Shown in pieces: positions 8,526 through 61,504 of a stretch of DNA of 61,504 nucleotides. How positions within the stretch are numbered: the stretch's first letter is position 1; every line of letters begins with the position of its first letter. A program made the translations under genes and the position numbers. The notes beneath the pieces were generated by a model. The model saw nothing but the letters and a program-made list of their open reading frames with translations, was not told the DNA's origin and searched no databases. The stretch comes from Pyrinomonadaceae bacterium (lineage in GTDB: Bacteria; Acidobacteriota; Blastocatellia; Pyrinomonadales; Pyrinomonadaceae): the NCBI GenBank assembly GCA_035606195.1, contig DATNFX010000313.1, positions 1-61,504 on the forward strand, written 5' to 3'.

Positions 8526-9260
8526 ATGGTTGGGACATCGAAAAAGGTTGATATTGAAAACAAAATTCTCACTGCGCTACCTCATGAAGAGTTAGTGCGC
8601 ATTCTACCGCACCTCGTAAGTGCTCGCCTCGAAAAGGGGGAAGTGATTTATGTAACCGGGGACAGAATCCGCTATGTCTACTTTCCGAGCAACGGTTTGA
8701 TTTCATTGCGTTGTGTAAGCTCCTCAGGTTCCACGGTCGAAGTGGCAATGGTAGGTGATGAAGGTATTATTGGATATCCCGTGATTCTAGGTAATTGGTT
8801 GATGCCCTACGAGGTCACCGTTCAAATTACTACCGACGTATTAAGGATCAAAGCGGATGACTTCCAGGAAGAGTTCAATAAGAGAGGAGCGCTATACCAC
8901 CTCACCTTGCGTTATCTTAATTTAATTATTGCGGAAATCTCGCAGTCATCTCTCTGTCATCGTTTTCACACTGTCGAAGAAGGACTCATCCGCTGGTTGC
9001 TCATCGCTCACGATCGATTATTCTCGAGTAGCCTTAACGTCACGCACGAGACTATTTCGAACTCTCTGGGTGTGCCGAGGACAGGTGTGACAATGGCTGC
9101 AGGTGCGTTACAGCGCGCAGGGATAATTCGTTACACTCGTGGCAAGATTGTTATCCTCGATCGGGCTAGACTGGAGGCCAGCTCATGTGAGTGTTTTCGA
9201 ATAGTCCACGATGAGCTCAACCGCTTTTCGAAGGAACAAATTCCGTCCTCGATTTCTTAA
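8526..9260 (+). CDS. Crp/Fnr-family transcriptional regulator (cNMP-binding-like domain plus C-terminal HTH)
   Basis: 244 aa. The N-terminal beta-roll-like region (GEVIYVTGDRIRYVYFPSNGLISL) and C-terminal HTH (THETISNSLGVPRTGVTMAAGALQRAGIIRYTRGKIVILD) are typical of the family. Confidence 0.85.
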   Translation: MVGTSKKVDIENKILTALPHEELVRILPHLVSARLEKGEVIYVTGDRIRYVYFPSNGLISLRCVSSSGSTVEVAMVGDEGIIGYPVILGNWLMPYEVTVQITTDVLRIKADDFQEEFNKRGALYHLTLRYLNLIIAEISQSSLCHRFHTVEEGLIRWLLIAHDRLFSSSLNVTHETISNSLGVPRTGVTMAAGALQRAGIIRYTRGKIVILDRARLEASSCECFRIVHDELNRFSKEQIPSSIS

Positions 9261-9281
9261 CATGAAAAAACAACATCGTAC

Positions 9282-9400
9282 TTTGTCTAATTTCAGACTC
9301 AGTCGACTTCACGACAGACGAGACATCTCATCTGATGTAGAAAGTTCGTGCTCTGACTAAACGGAAGACTCCAAACCCAGAGGATTCCCCTCCCTTACCC
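9282..9400 (+). promoter_or_regulatory. conserved leader element, copy A (paralog at 46995-47112), containing TGTCT-N6-AGACT
   Basis: Shares with copy B the blocks TTTGTCT.ATTTCAGACTCAGTC, TTCACGACAGAC, GTAGAAAG and GCTCTGACTAA, plus a weaker ..GAGGA.TC...CCTCCC tail. Same order and orientation in both copies. Confidence 0.6.
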
Positions 9401-9589: not shown

Positions 9590-10114
9590 ATGATTCAGGA
9601 CGTCAGCGATAGACCAACTTGGTACGCAATCTGCACAAATCCTCAGCAGGAAGACCGAGCTTGCAGTAATCTGCGCGCGTGGGGAGTAGAATGCTTGAAC
9701 CCCAAAATTAAGGAGTCTCGACGTAATCATTTCACGGGCATCGCCGAAGTCATTTCCAAACCATTGTTCCCGCGTTACATTTTCTCACGCTTCGAACTGA
9801 AAGGCGCATTTCACAAGATCAGTTTTACCAGGGGTGTCCATCGTGTGGTAAGTTTCGACGGTCGGCCCACTCCAATTGATGAAGACGTGATCGCGTTGAT
9901 TCAGTCGCGCGTAGGCAGCGATGGATTCGTCAAGATAGGTGCGAGCTTGAAACCTGGCGATGTGGTGCGAGTCAAAGATGGTCCGTGGAAGGCCCTGACC
10001 GGTGTAGTAGAGCGTGAGTTCAAGACAAACGAGAGGATCACGCTCCTATTGCAGTCCATCAAGTATCAGAGTCGCCTGACAATTGAAAGTCATTGGGTTG
10101 AGAAGATCAGTTGA
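9590..10114 (+). CDS. NusG-paralog transcription antiterminator (RfaH/LoaP/UpxY/TaA-like)
   Basis: 174 aa. AAGGAGG RBS at 9574-9580. NGN-like N-terminus (WYAICTNPQQE...KPLFPRYIF) and KOW motif (LKPGDVVRVKDGPWKALTGVVE). Confidence 0.8.
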   Translation: MIQDVSDRPTWYAICTNPQQEDRACSNLRAWGVECLNPKIKESRRNHFTGIAEVISKPLFPRYIFSRFELKGAFHKISFTRGVHRVVSFDGRPTPIDEDVIALIQSRVGSDGFVKIGASLKPGDVVRVKDGPWKALTGVVEREFKTNERITLLLQSIKYQSRLTIESHWVEKIS

Positions 10115-10355: not shown

Positions 10356-13300
10356 TTGTCAATGAGTACAAACACCCTCGCTATCCGTGAGCGCAACGCT
10401 GAAGTGCCGTCTACTTCGCTGACGCTCGTCGAGCTTCTAAGAAACCGAGCGCGGCTCCACGCCGATAGGGCTGCATATATCTTTCTCTCGGATGGAATCA
10501 CCGAAGAGACCACGCTGACCTGGGGAGATCTCGACCTCCAGGCGCGTGCCATGGGCGCATGGCTGCAATCGCTTACTGCTCGCCGAGAACGAGTACTCTT
10601 GCTTTACCCTGCCGGTCTCGAATACATCACCGCTTTCTTCGGGTGCTTGTATGCGGGTGTAATCGCTGTTCCAGCTTATCCGCCAAGGCAAAACCGGAAC
10701 CTGCGCCGCTTGCACTCGCTGATAATCGACGCGCAGCCGGCTGTCGCTTTAACTACCCGACCAATCTTGTCTCGAGTAATCAATTCATTCGGCAAAAATC
10801 CGGAGCTTGCAATGCTTCGCTGGGTTGCGTCTGAAGATAGACCAACCGCAGAACCGGAAAACTGGCAAGCGCCTGAAATCGCCCCGACTGACCTTGCGTT
10901 CTTGCAATACACATCAGGATCGACGTCGGCCCCCAAGGGCGTGATGCTGAGTCATAGCAATCTCGTCCAAAACGATCGTTTGATACATAAAGCTTTCGGC
11001 CAAACAGAACAGTCAGTCATAGTGAGTTGGCTGCCGCTTTATCACGACATGGGCCTTATCGGCGTCGTTCTTCACGCGTTGTCGGCCGGCGCGCGGTGCA
11101 TTCTCTTGTCGCCGACGGCGTTTTTGCAGCAGCCCTTTCAGTGGCTTCAGACTATCTCTCGCTATCGTGCCACCACGAGTGGTGGGCCAAACTTTTCCTA
11201 CGATCTCTGCGTGCGAAAGATTACCGATGAACAACGGGCCACGCTGGATCTGAGCTCGTGGAGTGTTGCCTTCAATGGCGCTGAAACTGTTCGCGCCGAA
11301 ACGATGGATAGGTTCGCCGCGGCCTTCGCCCCCTGCGGTTTTCGTCGCGAAGCGTTCCGGCCTTGTTACGGATTGGCCGAAGCAACGTTGATTGTGTCTG
11401 CTCGCGGCGAGTCCAGAGCTGAAGAGAACCGGCCTCTCGTCAAACACGTTTGCAAAACATCGCTGGAACAAAATCGCGTGATCGAGTTGGGGAAGAAAAC
11501 TCCAGACGCCCGCACAGTGGTCACGTGTGGTGCGCCGCTGTGCGCTCGGGAAGTGATCATCGCCAATCCCGATACATTGACGGGATGTGCGGCCAATGAG
11601 GTGGGTGAGATCTGGGTGTCAAGCCCAAGTGTCGCCGCCGGCTATTGGAACAACACCGAAGAGAGCGCGCGTACATTTCGAGCTGTTCCAAATGGTAGTA
11701 AAGCGACGTATCTGCGCACCGGCGACCTGGGCTTTCTTCTTGACGGTGAACTTTTTTTGACCGGTCGCCTCAAAGATTTGATCATCACGCGCGGGCGGAA
11801 CCTTTACCCTCAGGACATAGAAGGTACTGTTGAGCAGTGCGATCCGTCGCTTCGTCCGGGCTGTGGAGCTGCGTTCTCGGTAACGGTCGAGAGTGAGGAG
11901 CGCGTGGTCATAGTCCACGAGATAGAACCTCGGCGCACGGTGGAACTACAGTCTCTCATTACCTCAATACGCCAGGCCATTAGTGAAGAACATGAAGTAG
12001 TGGTGTATTCGGTTGCACTCGTCAAAGCTGGAATGGTCCCGAAGACATCCAGTGGCAAAATTCAGCGGAAAGCATGTCGCGAACTGTTTTTAGAAGGCGG
12101 ACTGGCGCCGATTGCCTATTGGCTGGAGACGCCTTTCGGCCATAAAGAAAACCTGTCCGATTCTCTGCGGCCCGCAGACTCTCTGAACGGAGCAGAGACG
12201 CTGAATTGGCTTCGCCTTCAGTTTGCGCAAGTTGTGAACATCAGCGCGGCCGAGATCGACATTCATCAGCCAATCCTGCGCTATGGTTTGGATTCACTGC
12301 TGGCGACTGAGTTGACACATCGCATTGAGTCAGAGCTGGGGATAGCAGTTCCGCTTACGAGTTTGTTGGAAAGCCCCACGATTGAGCAACTCGCAGCCAG
12401 TATTTGCGGCGAGGCTTTCGTCCGGGATAACGAAGAGCTGGTGGGACCTACACCTCTGACGAACACATCCTCAGAATATCCACTCTCATTCGGACAACAG
12501 TCACTCTGGTTTCAGCACCGCATGGCGCCGGACAGCGCCGCCTACAATCTCGCCAGTGCGTTGCGTCTCCGAGGACCTCTGAATGCGGTAGCTCTGGAGC
12601 GCGCCTTTGCATCTCTGGTGCAACGTCACGCGATGCTCAGGACCACCTTCTCTCAAAATAGCCTCGCTCCGCGCCAGCAAATACACGAAGAAATGCCCGT
12701 TTGCTTCGAGTTCGCTGACGCCTCATCGTGGAGCGAAGCCGCTGTACGCGAGTATTTGTTAAAGGAAGCGGAAGGGCCTTTCGACTTGTCCGCAGGACCA
12801 CTGCTACGGGTGAACCTGCTGAAGCGAGCTGACGATGAACACGTGTTGCTCGTCGCCGTTCATCACATCATCGTCGACTTCTGGTCCCTGTCAGTTTTGA
12901 TGAAGGAACTGGGTGTGCTCTACGAAGCGCACCGGAATGGTATGGATGCCAACCTGCCACCTTTGCAGTTGCAATACACGGATTACGTGCGCCACGAGAT
13001 GGAAGATCTCGAAGGGCCGCGCGGTAAGAGACTGTTGGAGTATTGGCAGCAACAGCTTGGTGGAGTGTTGCCGTTATTGAATCTCCAAACCGACTGGCCA
13101 AGACCCTCGCTGCAAACATTTCGCGGCTCTTCACAGAGTTTCAAGGTTAGCGCCGGCCTTACACACAAACTCAAAGAGCTTGGTCGAGAAACTGGCACAA
13201 CTCTGTACATGGTCCTGCTCGCGGCGTTTCAGCTGTTGCTCCATCGATACACGCAACAGAAGGAATTCCTGATCGGCTCACCGGTTGCGGGTCGTAACTC

Positions 13301-16300
13301 AGCGGCGCTCGCGTCTGTGATGGGATATTTCGTTAATCCTCTGGTTCTGCGAGCTGACATCTCCGGCGATCCCTCATTCATCGATTTGCTCGCGCGTGTG
13401 CGAGACACGGTGCTGAGCGCGCTGGCCCACCAGGATTGTCCCTTTGCTTTGCTTGTGGAACACCTCGAGCCAACACGTGACCCCAGCCGAAGTGCTCTGT
13501 TTCAACACATGTTTGTTATGCAGCAGTCCGCTATTGCGGGGGTGGGAGGACTATCGGAACAACTCGGCGAACTAGCCATGGAGCCAATCGCTTTGGATCG
13601 GCATGTTTCGATCTTCGATTTGAGGCTTGAGGTCGCACAAGCGGAAAAAACGCTGATCGGCTCGATGGAATACAACAGTGATTTGTTCGAGGCGACGACG
13701 ATCGAACGCATGCTGGGCCACTTTGAAACGTTGCTACAGAGCATTGTCGCGAACCCGGAAAAATGTGTTTCCAAACAAGCACTCCTCACGCCTGCCGAGA
13801 ATCAACAGTTGCTCGCTGAATGGAACGATACAACGGTGGATCGACCAGATAAGGCGCTGCATCAGCTCATTGAGGCCCAGGTCGCGCGGACGCACAATCT
13901 CGTCGCGGTGATCTTTGAAGATCAAAAGGTAACTTATGCTGAACTCGATCAACGGGCAAACGCGCTTGCCGCTGAATTGCGGCGGCGCGGGGTTGGACCA
14001 GACGTAATCGTCGCCATATGCATGGAGCGTTCAATCGAACTGGTGGTCGCTCTCCTTGGAGTATTGAAGGCCGGGGGGGCCTATTTGCCTCTCGATCCGG
14101 ATTATCCACGCGACCGGCTTCACTTCATGATTGAAGACTCGCGGCCCCCCGTGCTGCTGACGCAGAAACACGTGCGGCACAACCTGCCGAATTTCGCGGC
14201 ATGTCAAACGCTGTGTGTCGACGACGAAGTCTTCCCCGCAGCTCAAATAAACTCGGAAGTGACTGCCTCCAACCTGGCATACGTCATCTACACTTCGGGC
14301 TCTACGGGCTGGCCCAAAGGCGCGATGAACACGCACGCGGGTATCGTCAATCGTTTGCTGTGGATGCAGGAACAGTACGAATTGACCTCCACCGACTGTG
14401 TGCTCCAGAAAACGCCTTTCAGTTTTGATGTTTCGGTGTGGGAGTTTTTCTGGCCGCTGCTGACGGGCGCAAGGATGGTCCTGGCCAGGCCCGGTGGGCA
14501 CCAGGATCCCGCTTACCTCGCGGAGTTGATCGAGCGCGAGCATGTCACGACGATTCACTTCGTGCCGTCGATGTTGCAGATGTTTCTGGCAAACGCTGAC
14601 GCGAGCCGCTGCGACAGCTTGAAACGAGTGATCTGTAGTGGCGAGGCGTTGTCAAATGAACTGCAAGAGCGTTTCCACGCACGGCTCGGCGCGGAACTCC
14701 ACAACCTCTATGGCCCAACCGAAGCATCGGTAGATGTCACCTACTGGAAATGTGAGAGAGATGCGCGGCGGGCGGTAGTACCTATCGGACGGCCAATAGC
14801 CAACCTCGAGATCTTTTTGCTCGATGCGCTCGGCCATCCGGTTCCTGCCGGCGTTGTGGGTGAATTACACATAGGCGGCGTTGGGCTGGGCCGTGGTTAT
14901 TTCAATCGTCCTGAGTTGACCGCAGAACGTTTCCGACCGCACCCGTTTTCCAGCAAACCGGGAACTCAACTCTATCGCACAGGCGATCTCGGGCGCTATC
15001 GACCAGATGGTCAAATCGAGTTTCTGGGGAGGGTGGATCAGCAAGTTAAGCTGCGGGGCTTTCGCGTCGAGCTGGGCGAGGTTGAAGAGGCGCTCAGGGC
15101 GCACACTGCAGTGCGCGATTGTGTGGTAACAACAGCCGAAATCCTGCCCGGAGACATGAGGCTCGTCGCGTACGTGGTCCATGAAGGTAACGCCAGCGCA
15201 AACTCGGAAGAACTGCGGCGTCATTTGAGAGTAAGACTGCCGGAATACATGGTGCCGTCATATTTCGTGGCGCTCGAAACAATACCCCTTCTGCCAAATG
15301 CCAAGGTTGATCGTCGCAACCTGCCGCCGCCATCCGACCTGAGACTCGAGTTAACAAAAGAATTCGTTGCGCCTCGGAATCAGATCGAGAAGCAGTTGGC
15401 GGCGATCTGGGTTGAGGTCCTGGGCCTGGGGCAAGTGGGAGTTGATGACAACTTCTTCGAACTCGGCGGGCACTCGTTGCTGGCGATGCAGATAGTGGCT
15501 CGCATTAACCAGTTGTACCTGATCGATTTTCCACTGCGCAGGATGTTCGAAACTCCCACGGTCGCAGGAATCGCGCAATATCTTTCGGCGATGCGCCGCG
15601 CGGATGCGAAGCAGGAACAGCAACCGAGCAAACGCGCGCCGCGCCAGGTTGACTTACAACTCTCGTTTGCACAGGAGCGACTATGGTTTCTTGATCAGCT
15701 TGATCCTGTTAACTCAGCCTATAACATGCCAATCGTTCTTCGCATCCGCGGGCGACTAGACCTCGCTGTGTTGGAGCGTAGCGTGCAGGAAATCATCCGC
15801 CGCCATGAGATCTTGCGCGTGAGCCTCACCAACGTGAAGGGAAAGCCGGTGCAGGTGATTGCGCCGTTCGAAGAGTGGCGGTTGCGTGTGTTTGATCTGT
15901 TTGGTACCGCCAAATCGGACCGTTGGAATGAAGTGATTCGTTATGCGACGAAAGAAGCACAACGACCTTTCGATCTCACGCAAGGCCCACTGCTGCGCGC
16001 TGCCGCCTGGCAGATTGACGTGAATGACTATCTTCTTGTGCTCGTGATGCACCACATCGTCAGCGATGGCTGGTCGTTGGGAGTGTTCGCTAACGAATTG
16101 AAGACTCTCTACAAGGCCTATAGCGATGGCCGGCCTTCGCCGTTGCCCGATTTGTCGATTCATTACTCCGACTTCGTTCACTGGCAGCGTGAACGCCTTG
16201 CGAGTGAAGCAGCAGCCGAGCAACTTGATTACTGGAAGCGTCAACTTGCAGGACGTCTGCCGGCGCTCGTGTTGCCGGGCGAACATTTGCGCCGGCCGGC

Positions 16301-20256: not shown

Positions 20257-21294
20257 ATGAGTAGTCCGGCTCAATTCAAACGGGCGCGCAATGCTGTCCG
20301 GTTGATGTCGTCATCACTCGTCAGGCCCTACTACCTTGACGATGAGCGGAGAATGCCGCTGGTGATTGAACCCTCCTCGACCGACCTCGATCTCGTTTCA
20401 TGGGCCAGCGATCGCCGCCAGTTCATTGCGGACGAGTTATCACGTCACGGTGCGTTGTTGCTGCGCGGTTTCAGCATCCGCTCTGTGCAGCAGTTTGAGC
20501 AGTTTATTGACGTGACATCGGGTGGCGCGCTGCCGTACAGTGAACGCTCATCTCCACGCAGCCAGGTCAGTGGCAACATTTTTACGTCGACTGACTATCC
20601 CGCATCGGAAAAGATATTTCTGCACAATGAGCAGTCATATAACCTCCAGTTTCCTCTGAAGATTTATTTCTTTTGCCTCTTGCCCGCGGAAGTCGGGGGC
20701 GAAACGCCCGTGGCCGATACGCGACAACTTCTCGCTTCGATCCGGCCCGATATTCGCCGCCGCTTTTCAGAACAGGGCTACCTGTACGTTAGAAATTTCG
20801 GCAACGGCTTTGGGCTGTCATGGCAGGAGACCTTCCAAACGAGCAGCAAAACTGAAGTTGAGCAGTATTGTCGACAGCACCAGATCGGGTGCCAGTGGTT
20901 GGCCGGCAACCGATTAAGAACGTCGCAGCGACGCGACGCGATCGCCACACACCCGCGGACGGGAGAACAAGCGTGGTTCAATCATGCGACCTTTTTCCAC
21001 GTCTCGACTCTGGAACCGGTAATCCGTGAACGCGTGCTGGCGGAGTTTCCGGAAGTCGCTCTCCCAAACAACACCTACTACGGTGACGGCTCGCGTATTG
21101 AAGCTGAAACGATGGACCACCTTCAAGGCGTTTACCTGCAACACAAGATCCCCTTCACGTGGCAACAGTTTGATGTGCTGATGCTCGACAATATGCTCGC
21201 CGCGCACGGACGTGAAGCGTTCAAGGGACAGCGAAAAGTCGTAACCGGCATGGCCGATCCTAATCTCTGGAAAGATTGTAAAGCGAAAGACTGA
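20257..21294 (+). CDS. TauD/TfdA-family (SyrP-like) Fe(II)/2-oxoglutarate hydroxylase, paralog 1
   Basis: 345 aa. HxE facial-triad motif FLHNEQSY and distal LAAHGREAF. Size and genomic context are typical of hydroxylases acting on carrier-bound amino acids. Confidence 0.8.
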   Translation: MSSPAQFKRARNAVRLMSSSLVRPYYLDDERRMPLVIEPSSTDLDLVSWASDRRQFIADELSRHGALLLRGFSIRSVQQFEQFIDVTSGGALPYSERSSPRSQVSGNIFTSTDYPASEKIFLHNEQSYNLQFPLKIYFFCLLPAEVGGETPVADTRQLLASIRPDIRRRFSEQGYLYVRNFGNGFGLSWQETFQTSSKTEVEQYCRQHQIGCQWLAGNRLRTSQRRDAIATHPRTGEQAWFNHATFFHVSTLEPVIRERVLAEFPEVALPNNTYYGDGSRIEAETMDHLQGVYLQHKIPFTWQQFDVLMLDNMLAAHGREAFKGQRKVVTGMADPNLWKDCKAKD

Positions 21295-51982: not shown

Positions 51983-51992
51983 GAGAGCAGAC

Positions 51993-54338
51993 ATGGCCCA
52001 GTCGTCGGTATCAGTAAAAGCCGGTCCGGTGGTGTCCGCCAAGCCGTTCGATAGCGCCGCACTTTTTAATGTCCTTAGCTTGCTGTTCGTCGTCTTTGTA
52101 GTGTTTGTCGCTGTACACCTGCAAAAGGCGCCGGCAGCGGTACCACAAAGCGCTCCGCTGGATGTTTTCTCTTCGGGCCGTGCAATGAATGATCTCAAGG
52201 TCATTGCTGCTGGTCCACGTCCTATCGGAACAGCTCAACAGGCGGCAGTAAGACAGCATATCGTTCAGCGCTTGAGCAGCCTGGGTCTCGAGCCGCAGGT
52301 GCAAACGACCACCGCCGTTAATAGCGCCTACAGTCAGGCCGGAACAGTAAACAACATCGTTGCGAGAATAAAAGGCTCGAATGGCGCCAAAGCGTTGGTG
52401 CTGTCAACGCACTACGACTCTGTGCCGTACGGTCCCGGCGCGAACGACGCGGGCACTGCCGTTGCCGCCTTACTCGAAACCGCGCGCGCGTTGAAAACCG
52501 GTGGGCTGCTAAAGAACGACCTGATCTTCCTGTTTACCGATGGTGAGGAAACTGGACTTCTGGGCGCGCAGGCTTTCGCGAGCGAGCACCCCTGGGCCAA
52601 AGACGTTGGTTTGGTTTTGAACTTCGAGGCGCGCGGCAACACGGGTCCTTCAATAATGTTCGAGAGCAGTAATAATAATGCCTGGCTAATCGACGGTTTG
52701 GACCAGGCGGCGCCCGCTCCAATATCCAACTCTCTGGCGAATGAAGTCTACCGGCTCTTGCCCAACGATACGGATCTGACAGTATTCAAAAAGGCGGGCT
52801 GGGCGGGTCTGAACTTTGCTTACATCGATGGCCTGACACATTATCATACGCGCCTCGATGACCTCGGAAACACAGATGAGCGTAGTTTGCAGCATCAAGG
52901 TTCTTACGCGCTCGCACTCGCGCGATATTTTGGCAATGTCGACCTGACGCGCGGCGGTCAGGGCAATGCTGTGTACTTCAATATCCTCGGCACTGCGTTG
53001 CTTCATTACTCTTATGCATGGAACATCCCGCTGGCCATCTTCACTCTGCTAATCACGATCGCGGTTTTAACTATCGGAATTCGTAAAGGTGAGCTAACGC
53101 TGCGAGGTATTGCGTGGGGGACACTGACCTTCGTAGTCGCACTTGCCGTGAGCTGGTTCGTCGTGACGGGTTTGTGGTGGTTGATAAACCTGGTGGCGAA
53201 TTGGACTGGTTCGATATTTCAGAACAGAGCCTCTCGCAGTGAGTACTATTTTTTAAGTTTCGTGGCGCTGTCCGCGGCACTGTTTGCGGGCATGATCCAA
53301 TGGTTACGAAAGAAAACTGCGGATGCAAACCTGTTCGCGGGAGTTTTGGTTTTATATGCGTTACTGCTGTTACCCGCGACGTTGTTCCTCCCGGGCGTGA
53401 GTTATCTTTTTGTCTGGCCGCTGCTGGGTGCAGCCGTGTCGCTACTAATCGCCTTCGTGACTACTGACAAGGAAAGCGAATCACCACAACGACTTGGCAT
53501 TCTCACGCTCGGCGCGCTGCCTGGTCTGCTCCTCCTTGCTCCAACAGTCTACTTCTTGTATACCGCTCTGGTTTTGAGTATGCCGGCGGTATTGATTGTC
53601 CTGGCGGTGTTAGCGCTTGGTTTGTTGGCGCCCGCTCTGGCGCTGCCGGCAGTTTCAAAGCGATGGCTATTGCCGGTCGGTCTCGCAATCGCCGGCGTGG
53701 TGTTGCTGGCTATCGCTGGTTTGAACTCCAACTTCGACCACGACCAACCGCAAAAATCAGATCTCTTTTATGCCATGAACGCCGGCACCGGCAAAGCCAT
53801 TTGGGCCAGTGCGGACGTCCGGCTAAACGACTGGACCCGGCAATTCCTCGCGCAGGGAAACAGAGGAGACGTCAATCAATTCTTTCCCTCGCGCAATCGC
53901 TCGTTTCTACAAAGCGAGGCGCCTGCGATCCAGGAACCAGCGCCTGGCCTGCAAGTGCTGAAAGATGAAAACGGTTCTGACGTTCGCCGAGTGCAGTTAA
54001 AAATTACCTCGCCGCGTCAGGCCCCGAGCCTTGTAGTCTTTGTCGATGCCGACGTGCTGAAGGCAACAGTCAACGGCAGAGAAATTACGACTCCAGCCTC
54101 TCTGCGTGTTGGATCTGGTAGCGGTTGGTCCATGCAGTACAGCGGGACGCCTGTCGAAGGCTTTGATCTAGCGCTTGAGTTAAAACCATCGCAGCCGCTC
54201 AAGATCACGATAGTTGACCGCACCGATGGCTTGCCACAGTCATTAATTGGGAATTTCAAGTCACGCCCTGCTGACTTGGCGCCGTCTTCAAACCCATTCA
54301 GTGATGCGACTTTCATAAGCCGCTATTTCACACTCTGA
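51993..54338 (+). CDS. membrane-embedded M28-family metallopeptidase
   Basis: AGGAGAG RBS overlaps the upstream stop. M28 motifs STHYDSVPYGPGANDAGTAVAALLE and LFTDGEETGLLGA. N-terminal anchor plus a block of ~8 hydrophobic helices (about aa 330-560) and a C-terminal soluble domain. Confidence 0.8.
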   Translation: MAQSSVSVKAGPVVSAKPFDSAALFNVLSLLFVVFVVFVAVHLQKAPAAVPQSAPLDVFSSGRAMNDLKVIAAGPRPIGTAQQAAVRQHIVQRLSSLGLEPQVQTTTAVNSAYSQAGTVNNIVARIKGSNGAKALVLSTHYDSVPYGPGANDAGTAVAALLETARALKTGGLLKNDLIFLFTDGEETGLLGAQAFASEHPWAKDVGLVLNFEARGNTGPSIMFESSNNNAWLIDGLDQAAPAPISNSLANEVYRLLPNDTDLTVFKKAGWAGLNFAYIDGLTHYHTRLDDLGNTDERSLQHQGSYALALARYFGNVDLTRGGQGNAVYFNILGTALLHYSYAWNIPLAIFTLLITIAVLTIGIRKGELTLRGIAWGTLTFVVALAVSWFVVTGLWWLINLVANWTGSIFQNRASRSEYYFLSFVALSAALFAGMIQWLRKKTADANLFAGVLVLYALLLLPATLFLPGVSYLFVWPLLGAAVSLLIAFVTTDKESESPQRLGILTLGALPGLLLLAPTVYFLYTALVLSMPAVLIVLAVLALGLLAPALALPAVSKRWLLPVGLAIAGVVLLAIAGLNSNFDHDQPQKSDLFYAMNAGTGKAIWASADVRLNDWTRQFLAQGNRGDVNQFFPSRNRSFLQSEAPAIQEPAPGLQVLKDENGSDVRRVQLKITSPRQAPSLVVFVDADVLKATVNGREITTPASLRVGSGSGWSMQYSGTPVEGFDLALELKPSQPLKITIVDRTDGLPQSLIGNFKSRPADLAPSSNPFSDATFISRYFTL

Positions 54339-54364
54339 GAGGCTTTGCACAAAAATTACGGTCT

Positions 54365-54595
54365 TAGCCTGCGAAGCAGGCGGAAGCATAAAGCCTGGGG
54401 CGTAAGCCCCAAGGTCAAAGCGAAACAGATTTTCAAGCCCGCGAATGCGGGCGACAGAGCAAGCGCAGTCAAAATGGGACCGAATTTTGTTGCCCATGAG
54501 CTGCCGCCCATTTCATGGGCTCGCAAATTTAATTTTAATCCTCCTCCTGGGGCTTGCGCCCCAGGCTTTATGCTTCCGCCTGCTTCGCAGGCAAG
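54365..54595. repeat. composite palindromic (MITE-like) element: repeat copy 2 (54365-54478) plus inverted partial copy 3 (54546-54595) flanking a central hairpin
   Basis: CCTGC-GAA-GCAGG (54368-54380). CCTGGGGC-GTAA-GCCCCAAGG (54394-54414). GCCCGC-GAAT-GCGGGC. Central CCCATGA-N13-TCATGGG (54493-54519). The inverted copy contains CCTGGGGCTTGCGCCCCAGG (54546-54565) and CCTGCTTCGCAGG (54579-54591). Confidence 0.8.
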
Positions 54596-54686
54596 GTCCA
54601 CTTTTTGTGCAAAGCCACTCTGAGACAGCTCTCGTATCTTAACCTCGCAGAGAAAAGCGCGTAGGCCGACCAGCTAAGCGAAACCC

Positions 54687-57600
54687 ATGACAGTCAGTGT
54701 AAGCCCGGTCTCCGAAGAGAGGACACGGAATAGCATCGCTCGTAATCTGGTTGAACTCCTGATCTCGAGAGCGCAGGAGCAGCCGGATCGCGTGGCCTAT
54801 ACGTTTGTCGCGCAGGATGGCGCCGAAGAGCTCAGCGTCACCTACGAGGAGCTCGATCAAAAAGCCAGAAAGATCGCAGCAGCGATTCGGACGCGGGAAC
54901 TCAGCGGCGCGCACGTTTTGTTGGTTTATCCATTTGGACTCGAATACGTCGCAGCCTTCTTCGGCTGTTTGTATGCCGGTGCGGTCGCAGTGCCTGCGTA
55001 TCCGCCTCGTTCGAACCGCAACGTGACGCGGTTGAGATCGATCATCGTCGACGCGCAAGCGCGACTAATCCTCACCACAGAGACGTTGCGCAGCAGGCTC
55101 GAAAGTCTCTTGGGTGAAGAGTGCGATCTCGAGTGTTTGATCACGCCAGGCATTGACGATCGACTCGCTGAGGATTGGACGCCTGATCCAATCGATGGCG
55201 ATAGCGTGTGTCTTCTTCAGTACACGTCTGGCTCAACTTCGATACCGCGCGGCGTGCTGGTGACGCACAGTAACCTTTTGCACAATGAAGCACTGATTGC
55301 CGAAGCGTTCGAGCAGCGGCCTGAGTCAGTGATTGTGAGCTGGTTGCCGCTTTACCACGATATGGGGCTGATTGGGGGCGTGTTGCAGCCACTCTATCTG
55401 GGTGCGCGCTGCATACTTTTCTCGCCGTTGAGTTTCCTGCAACGTCCTTCCTTGTGGCTTGAACTGATCACGCGCTATCGCGCAACGACGAGCGGTGGGC
55501 CAAATTTCGCCTACGATTTATGTTTGCGAAAGATTCCGGCGGAAGCGCGCGCGACGTTTGATCTTCGCAGTTGGCAGGTCGCGTTCAATGGCGCTGAACC
55601 CGTGCGGCAGGAAACGCTCGAACGATTTGCTGAAGCATTTGCGCCCGCGGGATTCCGGCAGGAGGTTTTCTTCCCTTGTTATGGCCTCGCAGAGGCGACT
55701 TTGCTTGTTTCCGGAGGCAAGGCGAAAGACGCCGCACCGGTTATCAAGCCATTGCAGAGCAGTGAACTCGAACGAAACCGGGTCGTCGAGGGAAGGCCTG
55801 ACGAAGGACTGCGATATCTCGCCAGTTGTGGCATCCATGCGCGCGGACAAAAGGTTGTTGTGGTCAATCCCGAAACTCTGTTTGAGTGCCCGCGCGGGGA
55901 AATTGGCGAAGTGTGGGTGGCTGGGCCAAGTGTAGCGCTCGGTTATTGGAACCAGCCCGATCTGACGGCACAGACTTTCCGCGCTTATCTCTCCGGCACT
56001 GGCGCAGGACCTTTCTTACGCACTGGAGATCTCGGCTTTGTCGATGATGGAGAACTATTCATCACGGGCCGGCTAAAGGATCTCGTCATCGTTCGCGGTC
56101 TGAACTACTACCCACAGGACATCGAACTGGTGGCCGAGCATTGCCATCCGTCATTGCGTGCCGGTTGCGGCGCTGCGTTCACCGCTGACGTTGAAGGCGC
56201 CGAAGAGTTGGTTGTTGTGTACGAGGTGGATCGCCGTCGCACGGTCGAGATTGACAAAGTGCTCGTGGCAATTCACGAAGCGATTGCAGAAGAACTGGAG
56301 CTACAGGTTTCGACTGTTCTCCTGACAACGACTGGTTCGATACCAAAGACCTCGAGCGGGAAGATTCAACGAAGTCTTTGCCGCGAAATGTTTTTGGCGG
56401 GCGAGTTGAAGACAGTGGGTGCGTGGAGTGCGCGTTCGGGGCCCGGCGCCGTCGCTGGTGCTGACGATGTTGAGTCGATCGAGGAGTGGCTGATAAAGCA
56501 ACTGGCGCAGAGACTCGGTGTAGAACGATCGAGCATCGACGTCGAGCAGCCGATCGTGCGCTACGGGATTGATTCACTGGCGGCAGTAGAGTTGGCCCAC
56601 CTGATCGAGAGCCGCTTTGGGATCGTCGTGCCCATGGTTCGCTTTCTCCAGGATTCTTCTGTTCGTGAGTTGGCTACCTTTGCGCGGTCACAGCCGGAGG
56701 GGCCCGAGTTCTCCGCCGAGGATTTTCAACATTCAGAACAGCCGTTGTCTTCCGGGCAGCAATCTCTCTGGTTCATGCAAAAGCTGGCGCCGGAAAGCAC
56801 GGCCTACAACCTGGCCCGCGCGTTCCGAGTGAGGTCTCGGCTGGACCAGGAGGCGTTGCGGCGAGCGTTGAAAAAGTTAGTTGCTCGCCACGCTGCGCTT
56901 CGTACTACGTTCCACGAATCGCATGGCCGGCCGGTGCAAAGGATTCATGAGTTCGCGGAGATCTCTTTCCACGAGCTTGACGCCTTATCGATGAGCGAAC
57001 TTGCTTTTCAAGAGCGACTCACTGAAGAAACTAAAAAGCCGTTCAATCTCGAAACCGGGCCGCTGCTGCACGTGACTCTCTTTCGGAGAGCGCATGACGA
57101 GCACGTCCTGCTAATCGTAATTCATCACATCGTCTCTGATTTTTGGTCGTTCGCGCTTGTCATGAAAGAGCTGAGCGCGCTATATGCGGCAGAGGTAAAT
57201 GGTCAGGTTGCTAAGCTCGATCCGCTGCACGGGCAGTACGCGGAGTACGTAGCATCGCAGACCGATTTTATTGTTAACGGCAGGGGCCGATGTTGCGAGG
57301 AGTACTGGCAGCAGCAGCTCTCGGGCGAGTTGCCTCGGCTCAATCTACCTGGCGCTAATCCACGCCCGGCATTCAAGACGTTCGCCGGCCGATCGGCACT
57401 TTTAAAGTTCGACGCGGATTTTGGAGCACGCGTCAAAGCTCTCAGTAAAGAGTACGGCGCGACTCCGTACATGATCTTACTGGCGGGCTTCTACACGTTG
57501 CTGCACCGGCTCACGGGTGAGCACGATTTGATCGTTGGCACACTTACTTCGGGGAGAAGTCGTCCGCAGTTTGCCGGCAACGTTGGTTATTTTGTTAATC

Positions 57601-60023
57601 CGCTACCGCTGCGGGCCGATCTCAGTGGTCAGCCAACGTTCGCCGGCGTAATGCAACGCATGCGCGCGCTTGTATTGTCTGCATTTGAGCACCAGGACTG
57701 GCCCTTTCCGCAACTCGTCAACCAGGTACAACCACAACGCGATCCGGCGCGGTCGCCGATCTTCGACGTTGTGTTCGTGCTTCAGAAAACGCAATTGTTG
57801 GACGATCAGGATCTCTCTGCTTTTGCACTCGAACAGCCCGGAGCGCAATTGGAATTGAATGGATTGCGGCTTGAAACCGTGCCGCTGGAGAGTTGCACTG
57901 CTCAGTTCGATCTCATGCTTCTGATGGCGGAAACAGAGGCGGGAATAGTTGGGCGACTGGAGTACAACTCCGATCTCTACGAGCCGGAAGTAATCGAACG
58001 AATGCGAGCGCAGTACGAGCGGTTGCTGCGTGAAGCAGTTAGTGCGCCCTCGCACCGTGTGTCGCAGTTGCCCTTGCTCGGTGAGGCGGAGAAACAGCAG
58101 TTACTGGTGAATTGGAACCCGGGTGGAGCAGCACCCAATCAAGGACGCACGCTGAACGAAATGTTTTGGGCGCAGGCGCAACGAACACCTGAGGCGGTGG
58201 CGGTGCGTGGCCGGAATGGCGAGGGACTGAGTTATGCCGCTCTCGAAACGCAAGCTCGCGTGGTAGCTGAGTATCTGCGGCGGCAGGGGATTGGACCAGA
58301 GCAGTTAGTGGGAGTTTGTCTGCAACGCACGCCACAGTTGCTGGTTGGATTGCTGGGAATTCTGGAAGCCGGAGCCGCGTACGTCCCGTTAGATCCGCAT
58401 TATCCGAGTGAACGGCTGCGTTGGATGCTGGCCGACGCGGGAGCGAAATGGGTGTTGACTGAAGAAGCACTCATGGAAACAGTCCGCGCTATTGGCAGTG
58501 AAAGTGAAAGCATCAATCTGGATGCACTGTTGTCGGGATTGCCTGAACCGGCAGCCGAAGGTGCGAGCGGAGTCGCGCCGGCGAATCTCGCATATGTGCT
58601 TTACACGTCTGGATCCACGGGCAGGCCGAAGGGAGTCATGCTGACGCATGAGAGTGCAGTCGCGTTGCTGGGCTGGGCCCATGAGCAGTATGACGCAGCA
58701 GAGTTGAGCGCGGTGCTGGCGAGCACGTCAATCTGTTTCGACTTGTCTATCTTCGAACTGTTTGTGCCGCTGACGTGTGGCGGGACAGTCGTGCTGGTTG
58801 AAAACGTGCTGGAGCTGGGCGAGCTGAGGGGACGCGATGAGGTGCGATTAATCAACACGGTGCCTTCGGCGATGAAGGAGTTGTTGCGATTGCACGGGGC
58901 GTCGGGGAGTGTTCAAGTTGTGAATCTTGCTGGTGAAACGCTCGACGGCGGGCTGGTTGGAGAAATCTACGAACAGTTGCCGCATGTGAAAGCTGTTTGG
59001 AACCTGTATGGGCCAACAGAGGACACCACCTACTCGACGGGAGGAGTAGTTGAGCGCGGGACCGCAAGGCCGAATATCGGCCGAGTGCTGGCTGGAGAAC
59101 GGCTCTACATTGTCGATGCGCAGCAGCAGTTGAGGCCGATTGGCGCCACCGGGGAAGTGGTGTTGGGCGGCGTTGGGCTGGCGCGGGGTTATTTAGGCCG
59201 GCCGGAGATGACAGCGGAGCGGTTTGTACCCGACGGCATCAGTGGCGAGGCCGGAGCGCGTTTGTATCGCACGGGAGATCTCGGGCGGTATCAGCGCGAT
59301 GGCGCAGTCGAGTTTCTGGGGCGAATGGACCAGCAAATGAAACTGCGTGGATTTCGAATTGAGTTGGAGGAGATAGAGTCGGCCTTGCTGGGCCACGATT
59401 GGGTGAGTGAAGCCGCGGTCGTTGCGCAAACAGTGATCAAAGAGCAACGGCTGGTGGCCTATGTGGCGCTGACTGGAGCGGTTGATCGGAGCGTGAGTGA
59501 AGTGACGGAGGAGTTGCAAGGCCATCTTTCCGGGCTGTTGCCGGAGTTCATGTTGCCCGCGGCGTTGCTGGTGTTGCCTGCACTGCCGCGCACACCCAAC
59601 GGAAAGTTGGATCGAAAACAGTTACCGCCGGTCACGGAGTGGGGGGCGCCGCATACGCCTGACGCCAGCCTGCCCTTGAACCCCGTTGAGCAGTTGGTGG
59701 CGGAAATCTGGAGCGAGGTGTTGGGTCGCAGTGTAGTCGGTGCGGAGGACAACTTCTTCGCACTGGGTGGCCATTCGTTACTGGCAACTCAGGTGCTGTC
59801 GCGTTTGCGAGAAACCTTTGCCGTCGATCTTCCACTGCGAGTGATGTTTGAAGCACCGGTGCTCTCGGCGCTGGCGCGGACTGTTCAAGAACGGCTCAAT
59901 GGCGAGCAGGCTTCGCGCAAGTCTGCCGAAACGGTCAAGCGAGCGAGCCGCGATCTCTATCGCGTGAAATTGACCGGAACAGAGCAATTGACATTGCCCG
60001 AGAGCGTGAAGCGTTTCTTGTGA
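54687..60023 (+). CDS. second lipoinitiation NRPS: FAAL-ACP-C-A-T
   Basis: 1778 aa, collinear with the first ~1750 aa of the 10356 gene. FAAL LQYTSGSTSIPRG; ACP GIDSL; C HHIVSDF (57123); A YTSGSTGRPKG; T FFALGGHSLL. Confidence 0.95.
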   Translation: MTVSVSPVSEERTRNSIARNLVELLISRAQEQPDRVAYTFVAQDGAEELSVTYEELDQKARKIAAAIRTRELSGAHVLLVYPFGLEYVAAFFGCLYAGAVAVPAYPPRSNRNVTRLRSIIVDAQARLILTTETLRSRLESLLGEECDLECLITPGIDDRLAEDWTPDPIDGDSVCLLQYTSGSTSIPRGVLVTHSNLLHNEALIAEAFEQRPESVIVSWLPLYHDMGLIGGVLQPLYLGARCILFSPLSFLQRPSLWLELITRYRATTSGGPNFAYDLCLRKIPAEARATFDLRSWQVAFNGAEPVRQETLERFAEAFAPAGFRQEVFFPCYGLAEATLLVSGGKAKDAAPVIKPLQSSELERNRVVEGRPDEGLRYLASCGIHARGQKVVVVNPETLFECPRGEIGEVWVAGPSVALGYWNQPDLTAQTFRAYLSGTGAGPFLRTGDLGFVDDGELFITGRLKDLVIVRGLNYYPQDIELVAEHCHPSLRAGCGAAFTADVEGAEELVVVYEVDRRRTVEIDKVLVAIHEAIAEELELQVSTVLLTTTGSIPKTSSGKIQRSLCREMFLAGELKTVGAWSARSGPGAVAGADDVESIEEWLIKQLAQRLGVERSSIDVEQPIVRYGIDSLAAVELAHLIESRFGIVVPMVRFLQDSSVRELATFARSQPEGPEFSAEDFQHSEQPLSSGQQSLWFMQKLAPESTAYNLARAFRVRSRLDQEALRRALKKLVARHAALRTTFHESHGRPVQRIHEFAEISFHELDALSMSELAFQERLTEETKKPFNLETGPLLHVTLFRRAHDEHVLLIVIHHIVSDFWSFALVMKELSALYAAEVNGQVAKLDPLHGQYAEYVASQTDFIVNGRGRCCEEYWQQQLSGELPRLNLPGANPRPAFKTFAGRSALLKFDADFGARVKALSKEYGATPYMILLAGFYTLLHRLTGEHDLIVGTLTSGRSRPQFAGNVGYFVNPLPLRADLSGQPTFAGVMQRMRALVLSAFEHQDWPFPQLVNQVQPQRDPARSPIFDVVFVLQKTQLLDDQDLSAFALEQPGAQLELNGLRLETVPLESCTAQFDLMLLMAETEAGIVGRLEYNSDLYEPEVIERMRAQYERLLREAVSAPSHRVSQLPLLGEAEKQQLLVNWNPGGAAPNQGRTLNEMFWAQAQRTPEAVAVRGRNGEGLSYAALETQARVVAEYLRRQGIGPEQLVGVCLQRTPQLLVGLLGILEAGAAYVPLDPHYPSERLRWMLADAGAKWVLTEEALMETVRAIGSESESINLDALLSGLPEPAAEGASGVAPANLAYVLYTSGSTGRPKGVMLTHESAVALLGWAHEQYDAAELSAVLASTSICFDLSIFELFVPLTCGGTVVLVENVLELGELRGRDEVRLINTVPSAMKELLRLHGASGSVQVVNLAGETLDGGLVGEIYEQLPHVKAVWNLYGPTEDTTYSTGGVVERGTARPNIGRVLAGERLYIVDAQQQLRPIGATGEVVLGGVGLARGYLGRPEMTAERFVPDGISGEAGARLYRTGDLGRYQRDGAVEFLGRMDQQMKLRGFRIELEEIESALLGHDWVSEAAVVAQTVIKEQRLVAYVALTGAVDRSVSEVTEELQGHLSGLLPEFMLPAALLVLPALPRTPNGKLDRKQLPPVTEWGAPHTPDASLPLNPVEQLVAEIWSEVLGRSVVGAEDNFFALGGHSLLATQVLSRLRETFAVDLPLRVMFEAPVLSALARTVQERLNGEQASRKSAETVKRASRDLYRVKLTGTEQLTLPESVKRFL

Positions 60024-60068
60024 AGAAGTCTTTCAAGAGACTCAATCGGTCAAAGCTGAGTAACCTCA

Positions 60069-61504
60069 ATGAGTTTGATGGAAGCTGATCTGACGGAGAG
60101 GGAAGTCCACGTCTTTCCTACCTCCCTGGCCCAGCAGCGACTCTGGTTTCTAAATCAATTAGAACCGGACAGCGTGGCCTACAATATTAGTTTCGCCATT
60201 CGAATCGCCGGCGACCTCAAGGTGCATGCGCTTGAAAAAAGCCTGCGCGCCCTCGTAAACCGCCACGAGATTCTGCGGACCACGTTTTGCGCTGTTGAGG
60301 GACGACCGGTGCAGGTCGTTGCTCCTCACGCCGAATTGATCCTGCCGATTATCGATATCAGCGGCTGGCCGAAAGCTGTACGCGAAGATCGCGCGCGGGG
60401 ATTGGCGCGCGACGAGGCGCAGCGACTGTTCGATCTTGCTCGTGGTCCACTGCTTCGTACCACGCTGCTGCGATTAGCGGAAGCTGAGTGCATCTTGTTG
60501 CTCAGTATGCATCACATCGTCGCCGACGGATGGTCTATGAACGTCTTCGTCAATGAGACGGCCGCACTCTACGATAGTTTCAGACGAGACGAATCGTCGC
60601 CGCTCGCAGAGTTGCCGCTTCAGTATTCCGACTATTCGATCTGGCAGCGAGAGTGGCTCGAGAGCGGGGCAGCCGAATCTCAACTTTCATACTGGCGGCA
60701 GCATTTGAACAGTAGACCGGCGCTACTCGACCTGCAGTTCGATCATCCACGCACCGCGGTTGAATCCTCTCCGGGACTCAAGCAGTCGATTGTTCTGGAT
60801 GCGGAACTTACCGAACGTCTGCGGAGATTGAGCCGGCAGGAACACGTCACGATCTTCATGACGCTGCTCGCCGCGTTCCAAACGTTGCTTTACCGCTACA
60901 CGAACCAGGTAGATATCAGCGTTGGATCTACCATCGCCGGTCGCGATCGGAAAGAAATTGAGGGCCTCATCGGCTGCTTCCTCAATACGCTCGTGCTACG
61001 GACAGATCTTTCCGGCGATCCGACTTTCCGCGAACTGCTGCATCGCGTGCGTGAAGTGGCGCTCGCGGCTTATGCGAACCAGGACGTGCCGGTCGAGATG
61101 TTGTTGGATGAACTTCGGCCTGAGCGGCATCTCAATCTCAATCCACTCTTCCAGGTGATGTTCATTCTCCAGAACACGCCACACACTCAGTTACAACTCG
61201 CGGACGTCACGCTTAGCCTGCTGCCGAATGACTACAGCACGCCGAAGTTTGATCTGACACTTGATCTGACCGAAAGGCCTCAAGACATTTCTGGTTTCAT
61301 CGAGTACCGGACGGAGCTGTTCGAGACAGAGAGCATCGCCCGCTTTGCGCAACAGTTCCGGACGCTGCTGGGGGCGATTGTAGAGTGTCCTGAGAGGCGG
61401 GTGTCGCAGCTGCGGCTGCTGACGGCAGCGGAGGAGCAGCAGTTGCTGGTGGAGTTTGCTTCGTCAGGGAAGAGCGCGGGCGGTTCCTCCGGTCTTTGTT
61501 TGCA
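60069..61504 (+). CDS. NRPS (partial, runs off the window): C domain and start of an A domain
   Basis: ATG 60069. SLAQQRLWFLNQLEP, HHIVADGWS, then the C-A linker LLTAAEEQQLLVEF. The frame is open to the window end, so it is absent from the ORF track. Confidence 0.9.
   Translation, partial: MSLMEADLTEREVHVFPTSLAQQRLWFLNQLEPDSVAYNISFAIRIAGDLKVHALEKSLRALVNRHEILRTTFCAVEGRPVQVVAPHAELILPIIDISGWPKAVREDRARGLARDEAQRLFDLARGPLLRTTLLRLAEAECILLLSMHHIVADGWSMNVFVNETAALYDSFRRDESSPLAELPLQYSDYSIWQREWLESGAAESQLSYWRQHLNSRPALLDLQFDHPRTAVESSPGLKQSIVLDAELTERLRRLSRQEHVTIFMTLLAAFQTLLYRYTNQVDISVGSTIAGRDRKEIEGLIGCFLNTLVLRTDLSGDPTFRELLHRVREVALAAYANQDVPVEMLLDELRPERHLNLNPLFQVMFILQNTPHTQLQLADVTLSLLPNDYSTPKFDLTLDLTERPQDISGFIEYRTELFETESIARFAQQFRTLLGAIVECPERRVSQLRLLTAAEEQQLLVEFASSGKSAGGSSGLCL

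Follow-up and report, generated by a model that had tools for sequence, protein, structure and literature searches.

A fatty-acid-primed NRPS-PKS locus of an uncultured Pyrinomonadaceae bacterium with sub-assemblies resembling those of the AMB, puwainaphycin and threopeptin pathways

Three described pathways are the closest parallels to the gene cluster considered here, which lies on contig DATNFX010000313.1 (assembly GCA_035606195.1, Pyrinomonadaceae bacterium) and was analysed in a window of 61,504 nucleotides, by which we mean the whole stretch of DNA under study. In the AMB pathway, AmbB is built as A(Ala)-T-C (adenylation, thiolation and condensation domains), AmbC and AmbD are two oxygenases, and AmbE carries a 461-aa N-terminal region without assigned function, followed by A(Glu)-MT-T1 (MT, methyltransferase). 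AmbC and AmbD hydroxylate the carrier-bound Glu and the methyltransferase O-methylates it, which leaves a hydroxy-methoxy-glutamate on the carrier domain; a McyA-like C* domain then dehydrates the modified Glu, and T2, which lacks an A domain, is loaded in trans. PuwE is a hybrid polyketide synthase/nonribosomal peptide synthetase (PKS/NRPS) of the puwainaphycin pathway, in which an aminotransferase and an oxygenase domain have been proposed to form the 3-amino-2-hydroxy acyl unit. Finally, in the threopeptin pathway, SnaE is a peptide aminoacyl-tRNA ligase (PEARL), which acts on the carboxylate that a ureido-forming C domain of motif EHHxxHDG has left free and extends it (Yu and van der Donk 2024). 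The same study reported about 2000 NRPS/PKS clusters with such stand-alone LanB-like proteins, which its published criterion assigns to the PEARLs.

Positions 8526 to 61504 of the window hold 15 co-directional genes (g01 to g15, Table 1): 2 regulators, 6 megasynthase genes and 7 accessory genes according to the list of open reading frames (ORFs), Pfam and NCBIfam, the last megasynthase gene, g15, being cut off by the window edge. The domain map was drawn from Pfam and NCBIfam scans, from mapping against the window's own domains and from inspection of motifs. This locus exceeds 60 kb and represents an uncharacterised hybrid lipopeptide gene cluster of an uncultured bacterium, which is both real and intact. 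Indeed, identical g12 and g14 proteins with the same neighbours were found on metagenome contigs from at least eight independent assemblies, and a second lineage (contigs L003, L084 and L164) carries the same genes, except the M28 peptidase gene, at 72-88% amino-acid identity and with intact ORFs, which together exclude an assembly artefact. A third lineage, represented by the 1.34-Mb contig L163, carries the first half of the cluster. Among the matches listed, the named homologues of the TauD protein (62-69% identity) belong to Pyrinomonadaceae and Blastocatellia, and those of the LanB-like protein (44-49%) mostly to Pyrinomonadaceae or other Acidobacteriota, with some Herpetosiphonaceae, which makes it likely that the locus stems from Acidobacteriota. 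All carrier domains retain their serine, and the catalytic motifs are kept in the KS, AT, KR, DH and T domains and in nine of the eleven C domains; C4 lacks both His residues and C5 the first.

An earlier sequence-only reading of this DNA had proposed a large unidirectional FAAL-primed NRPS-PKS locus, which Pfam scans, domain mapping and motif checks uphold, with 14 genes and 5 megasynthases where we count 15 and 6. Its two FAAL-ACP starts are the FAAL-ACP-starter C loading units of g03 and g14, which are 46% identical paralogues. The seven complete A domains that it counted are all present, while the eighth that it placed at the window edge lies beyond it: g15 breaks off at residue 478, within the C-A linker, and an identical allele has the start of its A domain at about residue 482. 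We also recovered the two FkbM-interrupted A domains (TIGR01444, both methyltransferases between motifs A8 and A9), the His-less C domain of g06 (QPALCADAES in place of HHxxxDG), the two hydroxylase genes (TauD by Pfam), the two genes that end in a C domain (g03 and g08), the module without an A domain (g08 ends in C-T-C, and its T keeps the serine motif GGHSL) and the single PKS module with its C-terminal LLM domain. The same holds for the MbtH-like gene (by Pfam), the non-canonical carbamoyltransferase g10 (OTCase fold with altered ornithine motifs), the EctD-like hydroxylase g11 (PhyH family, far below the EctD cut-off), the small LanB-like protein g12 (801 aa, Lant_dehydr_N only) and the membrane peptidase g13 (M28 domain and multi-helix membrane region). 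Likewise, the absence of a recognisable thioesterase (TE), reductase or E domain holds for a Pfam scan of the 15 genes, in which Thioesterase and NAD_binding_4 have zero matches. That reading knew of no characterised pathway with such an architecture, and we found no characterised cluster of the same overall architecture either, in a comparison that did not cover MIBiG. What has to be given up is the idea of an unprecedented set of parts, as most of the odd parts fall into three sub-assemblies with published precedent. The LanB-like protein is one of them: its PEARL type is already described, and the characterised partner of that type, a ureido-forming C domain, is encoded in the same locus just past the window.

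The first sub-assembly spans g03 to g06. The parts and gene order of an AMB-type cassette are found here as A2(Ala)-T-C3, TauD, TauD and C4*-A3(Glu)-MT-T, with code-based substrates, and the arrangement is kept in two further lineages. Likened by parts and order, the orphan C domain, the two hydroxylases, the His-less C domain and the FkbM-interrupted Glu A domain would be one cassette mirroring ambB-C-D-E, so that a single precedent explains four items that had each seemed unusual. C3, the last domain of g03, has an intact catalytic motif. The methyltransferase (93 bits to TIGR01444) lies between A8 and A9 in g06 (A8 at aa 838, FkbM at 947-1145, A9 at 1204, A10 at 1225) as in g08 (A8 at 860, FkbM at 979-1170, A9 at 1230, A10 at 1251), and both halves of each A domain are intact; module 1 of g08 repeats the A(Glu)-MT unit of g06 at 42% identity. 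C4 belongs to the LCL-like domains but has diverged. The g06 orthologues of L163 and L164 share its QPxLCxDAES motif, and since the three lineages are only 62-71% identical overall, this His-less domain is maintained rather than decayed. C4 may also belong with the 'interface' domains described in 2019 by Reitz et al. Domains of that name are annotated by antiSMASH 8.

The likeness to the AMB system is one of architecture: A(Ala)-T-C and two Fe/2OG oxygenases are followed by an NRPS that has a non-catalytic N-terminal part of about 430-450 aa, a Glu-type A domain, a methyltransferase and a T domain, with an atypical McyA-like C* domain and a T domain without an A domain within the same megasynthase set. 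However, the cassette here is part of a long lipopeptide line and hands over to a PKS module, while AmbE continues with C*-T2-TE; it is partly duplicated, as module 1 of g08; and the C*-type domain C7 comes after a Val module. In the NCBIfam scan no Amb-specific or SyrP-specific model matched, and a tblastn search of plasmids with g06 gave matches that were all of about 40% identity or less and uninformative. The synthetases of beta-hydroxy-aspartate lipid siderophores (potashchelin, cupriachelin) are comparable by their quoted architecture, in that the A domain of the hydroxylated residue comes after a C domain, one or more TauD enzymes and a second domain of the C family. They differ by an Asp code where g06 has a Glu-type code, by the O-methyltransferase embedded in the A domain here, and by the lack of siderophore transport genes in the window. 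Fusions of a C domain with TauD (837 aa; P0231 and P0240) exist in Pyrinomonadaceae among related Acidobacteriota and resemble the C-TauD fusion of the potashchelin synthetase PtcB; such fusions may support a functional pairing of the terminal C domain with a TauD hydroxylase.

The second sub-assembly is the PKS gene g07, whose catalytic motifs are intact. Its AT domain, with the motifs GHSIG and HAFH, is presumably of the malonyl type, as judged from established motif knowledge. The LLM domain gives 392 bits to the oxygenase domain of PuwE (PDB 6KET) and belongs to TIGR04020 (492 bits against a cut-off of 244). As in the puwainaphycin/minutissamide pathways (FAAL-ACP in PuwC/D, PKS-AmT-Ox-NRPS in PuwE, AmT and Ox being the aminotransferase and oxygenase domains), the ACP of a PKS is followed, in a FAAL-primed hybrid lipopeptide line, by a fused flavin oxygenase of this family; unlike PuwE, g07 has no aminotransferase domain, and its KR and DH domains stand in an unusual order. 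Indeed, the KR lies ahead of the DH (29589-31403, aa about 1046-1650), which is not the usual cis-AT order and had escaped the sequence-only reading. The KR is closest to that of the trans-AT PksJ/MlnE type and the DH to that of the PksJ/Cur type.

We typed the C domains by their best match to solved structures, with types taken from the literature. C11 of g15 scores much higher to TycC6, FscG and Txo1/2 than to SrfA-C or TycB1 and is LCL-like; by similarity, C2, C3, C6, C8 and C9 are LCL-like as well. C5 shows the opposite pattern, with 404 bits to McyB, and is DCL-like; its motif reads YYHGLVDG. C7 matches McyA (8JBR, N-terminal C domain) with 380 bits, C* of AmbE (7R9X) with 236, McyB with 174 and TycC6 with 90, and by this best-match test it groups with McyA and AmbE C* rather than with the LCL, DCL or E types. 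A clade of such CmodAA, or dehydrating, C domains has been described in a review. Neither the lost His of C5 nor the type of C7 had been noticed in the sequence-only reading. By these structure matches, the N-terminal motif 'LSFAQQRLWFL' goes with LCL-like domains and 'YPLSPMQEG' with DCL/CmodAA-like ones. In the last module of g08, the orthologue in L003 keeps a decayed and truncated A domain of about 430 aa (aa about 1456-1886 of the fetched 2435-aa C-terminal part), with the P-loop TSDTSGMPNG, without the Asp of A4 and the Glu of A5 and with A9 and A10 absent, where g08 has a bare 34-aa linker between C8 and T (45205-45303). As the orthologue thus keeps only a remnant, the loss of the A domain is old and tolerated.

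The codes of the A domains were read by hand and compared with Stachelhaus tables. We take A1 (DVWHISLVDK) to activate approximately Ser, A2 and A7 (both DLFNNALTYK) approximately Ala, A3 (DAKDLGLVDK) approximately Glu, A4 (DAKDLGVVDK) Glu and A5 (DAFWLGGTFK) approximately Val; the code of A6 (DPWYIGSIAK) gave no assignment.

The third sub-assembly joins g12 to the end of the locus. Only PF04738 (Lant_dehydr_N) matches g12 (E 1.4e-34), a domain content that, like the size of g12, fits the PEARLs. None of the 11 C domains in the window carries EHHxxHDG. However, two contigs (L171 and L166) encode a g15 that agrees with the window in all of its first 478 residues and continues as A8(DTEDIGTVVK)-T-Curea-A9(~Val)-T-C, where Curea, the ureido-type C domain, reads LTEHHLVHDGWTQ at residue 1216, about 2.2 kb beyond the window edge, and displays the EHHxxHDG motif. 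The g15 orthologue (3715 aa) has the same ureido-type C domain and a terminal C domain. As the truncated last gene holds this domain in an identical allele, g12 is most likely a PEARL acting as in threopeptin. The downstream sequence came from a metagenome scan and an exact look-up of g14; queried with the g15 fragment, a protein database yielded only short C-domain proteins, at most 57% identical. Several independent assemblies (L001/L168, L167, L169 and L170) break off, as the window does, within one stretch of 30 codons in g15 (about 61415-61504, aa 449-478); the shared breakpoint probably stems from near-identical repeats in the downstream A domains, of which the first and third copies share a code in the orthologue.

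The resemblance to the threopeptin (sna) cluster of Stackebrandtia nassauensis lies in a stand-alone LanB-like protein without an elimination domain in an NRPS-PKS cluster that also carries an EHHxxHDG C domain. The two loci differ in the position of that domain. SnaA is A-T-Curea-A-T, with the ureido domain as its leading C domain and a free aminoacyl thioester as the donor, whereas in the present locus, as in L084, L085, L088 and L092, the ureido domain comes third among the C domains, after FAAL-ACP-C-A-T-C-A-T. Moreover, no TE gene was found here, and the likeness of g12 to SnaE is one of domain content. The A domain preceding Curea always has the code D[AT]EDIG[TS][IV]VK, whose acidic pocket residues suggest a basic amino acid as its predicted substrate. 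The trio of small LanB-like protein (sLanB), FAAL-NRPS and ureido-NRPS is present in L084 and L085 and, rearranged, in L050 and L062, a gammaproteobacterial and a Parvularcula metagenome-assembled genome (MAG), respectively. In L026, a Solibacteraceae MAG, the sLanB gene adjoins a classical A-T-Curea-A-T gene, and no FAAL gene was seen. The g12 family is large, with more than 1500 database homologues and at least 578 confirmed stretches in species-representative genomes, and an NRPS A domain lies within 10 kb in 57 of the 83 fetched loci with sLanB homologues. EHHxxHDG was found at that distance in 4 of the 83, and we rejected a general link between this motif and the whole sLanB clade.

Altogether, we lean slightly towards a window that holds two fatty-acid-primed assembly lines, with the pathway outlined below. 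The two lipoinitiation starts are probably better read as belonging to two evolutionarily separable lines, as the second half recurs alone, each half has its own FAAL and a 434-bp AT-rich spacer with a conserved block lies between g08 and g09. Indeed, L085 holds the sLanB gene, FAAL-ACP-C-A-T and C-A(basic)-T-Curea-A-T, and its flanks contain no other NRPS/PKS gene and no ORF of at least 200 aa. A serious rival, which we consider possible though clearly less probable, is one convergent pathway in which both lipidated chains end in a single branched product and the terminal C domains of g03, g08 and g15 work between proteins, one of them joining the lines, for instance onto the side-chain amine of the basic residue or onto the T domain without an A domain of g08. 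The 15 genes are indeed co-directional and tightly spaced, with regulators, including a NusG-type antiterminator, at the 5′ end only; the halves are adjacent on one contig in the 75% orthologue as well, so that adjacency is seen in two lineages; neither half has a TE; and three genes end in what look to be ordinary LCL elongation-type C domains rather than specialised release domains. On the other hand, the second half stands without the first in L085, the first-half orthologue lies on the 1.34-Mb contig and no close sLanB homologue among the best 120 matches comes from a contig of that size, the spacer splits g08 from g09, and no acceptor protein starting with A or T was seen, g06 excepted.

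In the favoured pathway of two lines, the first line (g01 to g08) would start with a fatty acid placed on the ACP by the FAAL, coupled to Ser by the starter domain C1 and followed by Ala. C3 of g03 would then condense the growing chain with the Glu that is loaded on g06, at its T domain. By analogy with AMB, the two TauD enzymes would hydroxylate the tethered Glu and the embedded FkbM methyltransferase O-methylate it, and the His-less C4, as the counterpart of the 461-aa AmbE region, would probably dock partners rather than catalyse condensation. The PKS module would add one malonate, which would be reduced and dehydrated, and the PuwE-like flavin oxygenase would oxidise the ACP-bound chain. 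g08 would add a second modified Glu, Val and a further residue; its McyA/AmbE-type C domain may dehydrate a residue, and the T domain of its terminal C-T-C would have to be loaded in trans or skipped.

The second line (g09 to g15 and beyond) would comprise FAAL-ACP-C-A(Ala)-T, C-A(basic residue)-T, Curea, A(Val)-T and more modules. Ureido formation would free a carboxylate, which g12, acting as a PEARL, would extend with an amino acid from an aminoacyl-tRNA, using ATP, and the variant carbamoyltransferase and the PhyH oxygenase may tailor the basic residue. More speculatively, and in our view rather unlikely, the combination of sLanB, FAAL-ACP-C-A-T and C-A(basic)-T-Curea-A-T would make lipo-ureido peptides. 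In these, the chain would reverse midway at one diamino acid with one amine capped by acyl-Ala, the other linked through the ureido group to the rest of the chain and the freed carboxylate extended by the PEARL (a three-way branch), with a release free of thioesterase; the product of this locus may further couple to another lipopeptide line through the terminal C domains.

Several points weigh against this picture. The substrates of the A domains rest on codes that were read by hand and matched to Stachelhaus tables. No release domain is found in either line, be it in the window or in the orthologues, which leaves the pathway as drawn incomplete. In the first line, C11, used as a proxy for C3, gives 108 bits to the T-C didomain of AmbB and 337 to Txo2, and the dehydrating-type C7 does not come after the modified Glu module, unlike in AmbE. 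In the second, Curea is not the first C domain of its line, since it follows FAAL-ACP-C-A-T and C-A-T, and its donor should already be N-acylated; the published mechanism would accommodate this only if the basic residue were a diamino acid or C11 served some other function. Besides, with EHHxxHDG within 10 kb in so few sLanB loci, the link between PEARLs and ureido domains is not general for the clade.

A further and improbable alternative concerns g12, which would be a true dehydratase component that glutamylates Ser, Thr or a beta-hydroxy residue, elimination being left to another enzyme or spontaneous. By sequence, g12 has zero matches in the PDB, but its structural model (pLDDT 80) superposes over its full length on the glutamylation domain of TbtB, with a TM-score of 0.64, and also matches the N-terminal glutamylation domains of MadB, MibB, GodF and NisB (TM-scores up to 0.64); moreover, Ser is a predicted substrate of the first line, and beta-hydroxy residues could arise through its TauD enzymes. 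Nonetheless, the elimination domain PF14028 was found in none of the 15 genes and in none of five scanned upstream ORFs, g15 being the only gene examined downstream of the window, and no unassigned ORF or gap in the window is large enough to encode it. The only gap of the size of a precursor gene is the g08-g09 spacer, whose 54-aa ORF is not conserved in the orthologue, no dedicated precursor search having been made. With no elimination domain found and an NRPS context, g12 does not qualify as a class I LanB, and the published rule places stand-alone proteins of this kind among the PEARLs. In addition, the cluster already has a dedicated dehydrating-type C domain, and the g12 gene travels with the ureido-NRPS cassette and not with the first line.

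Finally, a decaying or chimeric locus, for which the His-less C domain, the module without an A domain, the missing TE, the A remnant of the orthologue that is deleted here, the many assemblies that break at one point of g15 and a transposon-like insertion might speak, is very improbable in view of long and intact ORFs, the kept catalytic motifs, a His-less motif conserved across three lineages and the same gene order in at least eight independent assemblies.

Table 1. Features of the locus, with positions in the 61,504-nucleotide window; substrates in brackets are predicted from A-domain codes.
Feature	Position	Strand	Description
g01	8526..9260	+	CRP/FNR-type regulator, cNMP-binding and HTH_Crp_2 domains (Pfam, NCBIfam)
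g02	9590..10114	+	NusG paralogue, RfaH/LoaP/UpxY-like antiterminator (Pfam, NCBIfam)
g03	10356..20213	+	3285 aa: FAAL-ACP-C1(HHxxxDF)-A1(~Ser)-T-C2-A2(~Ala)-T-C3
g04	20257..21294	+	TauD-family Fe/2OG oxygenase, 46% identical to g05
g05	21300..22325	+	TauD-family Fe/2OG oxygenase
g06	22384..26457	+	1357 aa: His-less C-like C4 (aa 10-428)-A3(~Glu, FkbM MT inside)-T
g07	26454..33242	+	2262 aa: KS-AT-KR-DH-ACP-LLM
LLM domain of g07	32193..33104	+	PuwE-like luciferase-like oxygenase, C-terminal
g08	33421..46902	+	4493 aa: C5-A4(Glu code, FkbM)-T-C6-A5(~Val)-T-C7-A6-T-C8-T-C9
C7 of g08	40732..42060	+	McyA/AmbE (CmodAA, dehydrating) type; HHxxxDG intact
C8-T-C9 of g08	43870..46881	+	Module without A domain; T at nt 45304-45489 keeps GGHSL
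g09	47336..47569	+	MbtH-like protein (Pfam)
g10	47656..48657	+	OTCase-fold carbamoyltransferase, second-substrate site altered
g11	48677..49558	+	PhyH-family (EctD-like) Fe/2OG oxygenase
g12	49577..51982	+	Small LanB/PEARL-like protein, 801 aa, glutamylation-domain fold only
g13	51993..54338	+	Membrane M28 peptidase: N-terminal transmembrane helix, M28 at aa 121-309, multi-helix transmembrane block at aa ~340-580
MITE-like insertion	54340..54616		277 bp, long terminal inverted repeats, between M28 gene and g14
g14	54687..60023	+	1778 aa: FAAL-ACP-C10(HHxxxDF)-A7(~Ala)-T
g15	60069..61504	+	First 478 aa only: C11 and C-A linker

Among the accessory genes, g10 keeps the carbamoyl-phosphate motifs STRTR and HPxQ but has TTRWQTMG for DxxxSMG and HDLP for HCLP, so that the Asp and Cys that bind ornithine are lost; it is not an ornithine carbamoyltransferase by these motifs or by TIGR00658 (257.1 bits, below the cut-off of 280.85). 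In 10 of the 83 related loci, including L004/L005 (9001-12595), L006, L010, L020, L041 and L044, sLanB has an OTCase-like gene in its vicinity, and in one distant genome of the Acidobacteriota this gene immediately precedes sLanB. This proximity hints at a possible functional link between the carbamoyltransferase and the PEARL; apart from L003, these loci show no ureido-type C domain within the fetched 10-kb flanks. The oxygenase g11 is a PhyH member closest to ectoine hydroxylase but is not EctD (TIGR02408, 152.8 bits against a cut-off of 336.5), and PhyH homologues come after the ureido-NRPS gene in L088 and L092.

The peptidase g13 has about eight hydrophobic helices. Its gene is present in every contig with an identical g12 or g14 allele that spans the site, and absent from the 75%-identical orthologous clusters (L003 and L084), in which sLanB is followed directly by the FAAL gene. 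From this distribution, g13 is a recent addition and not a core pathway gene; a core step as a ClbP-like prodrug-cap peptidase was ruled out, as the gene is missing from the orthologous clusters. The insertion between g13 and g14, which resembles a miniature inverted-repeat transposable element (MITE), has arms of about 80 nt that are 91-92% complementary, and it is flanked by an 8-bp direct repeat, ACTCTGAG, at 54332-54339 and 54617-54624. In L001 the element is exactly absent and the two 8-mers are adjacent, in near-identical flanks (one mismatch in the aligned stretch); no other copy of the arm was found in the window or in 165 fetched loci. It looks like a polymorphic MITE-like insertion or the footprint of its excision.

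At the 5′ end, g02 stays under every equivalog cut-off of NCBIfam (RfaH, 99.5 bits against 144.5). The genes upstream, below 8.5 kb, show no obvious link with the cluster; they encode a protein that weakly matches HEAT repeats, one with CarboxypepD_reg, an amidase and a DUF7003 protein. The weakly HEAT-like protein lies at 58-1500 of the window, and a HEAT-repeat protein (629-1969) also stands directly upstream of the stand-alone sLanB cassette of L085. Rfam gave zero matches within the window, and promoter and terminator scans were at chance level, except for hairpins that are the arms of the MITE-like element.

While the parts are mostly covered by the three published precedents (AMB, the PuwE oxygenase, and a PEARL with a ureido-forming C domain), what is new is the way they are combined, the internal placement of the ureido-type domain within the conserved PEARL cassette and the lack of any known release step. 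So far, a single PEARL from an NRPS context is characterised. In genomes of Acidobacteriota-like, Solibacteraceae, gammaproteobacterial and Parvularcula origin, this locus and its relatives bring a PEARL together with a FAAL-primed line whose ureido-type C domain is internal, which points to a wider likely reach of the tRNA-dependent extension of nonribosomal peptides and raises the mechanistic question of a ureido domain that acts on an already acylated donor. The first half suggests that AMB chemistry on carrier-bound glutamate is reused inside large lipopeptide lines. Altogether, the cluster is a good lead for genome mining and a defined target for heterologous expression or for making the predicted product by synthesis, in a lineage with almost no characterised metabolites.

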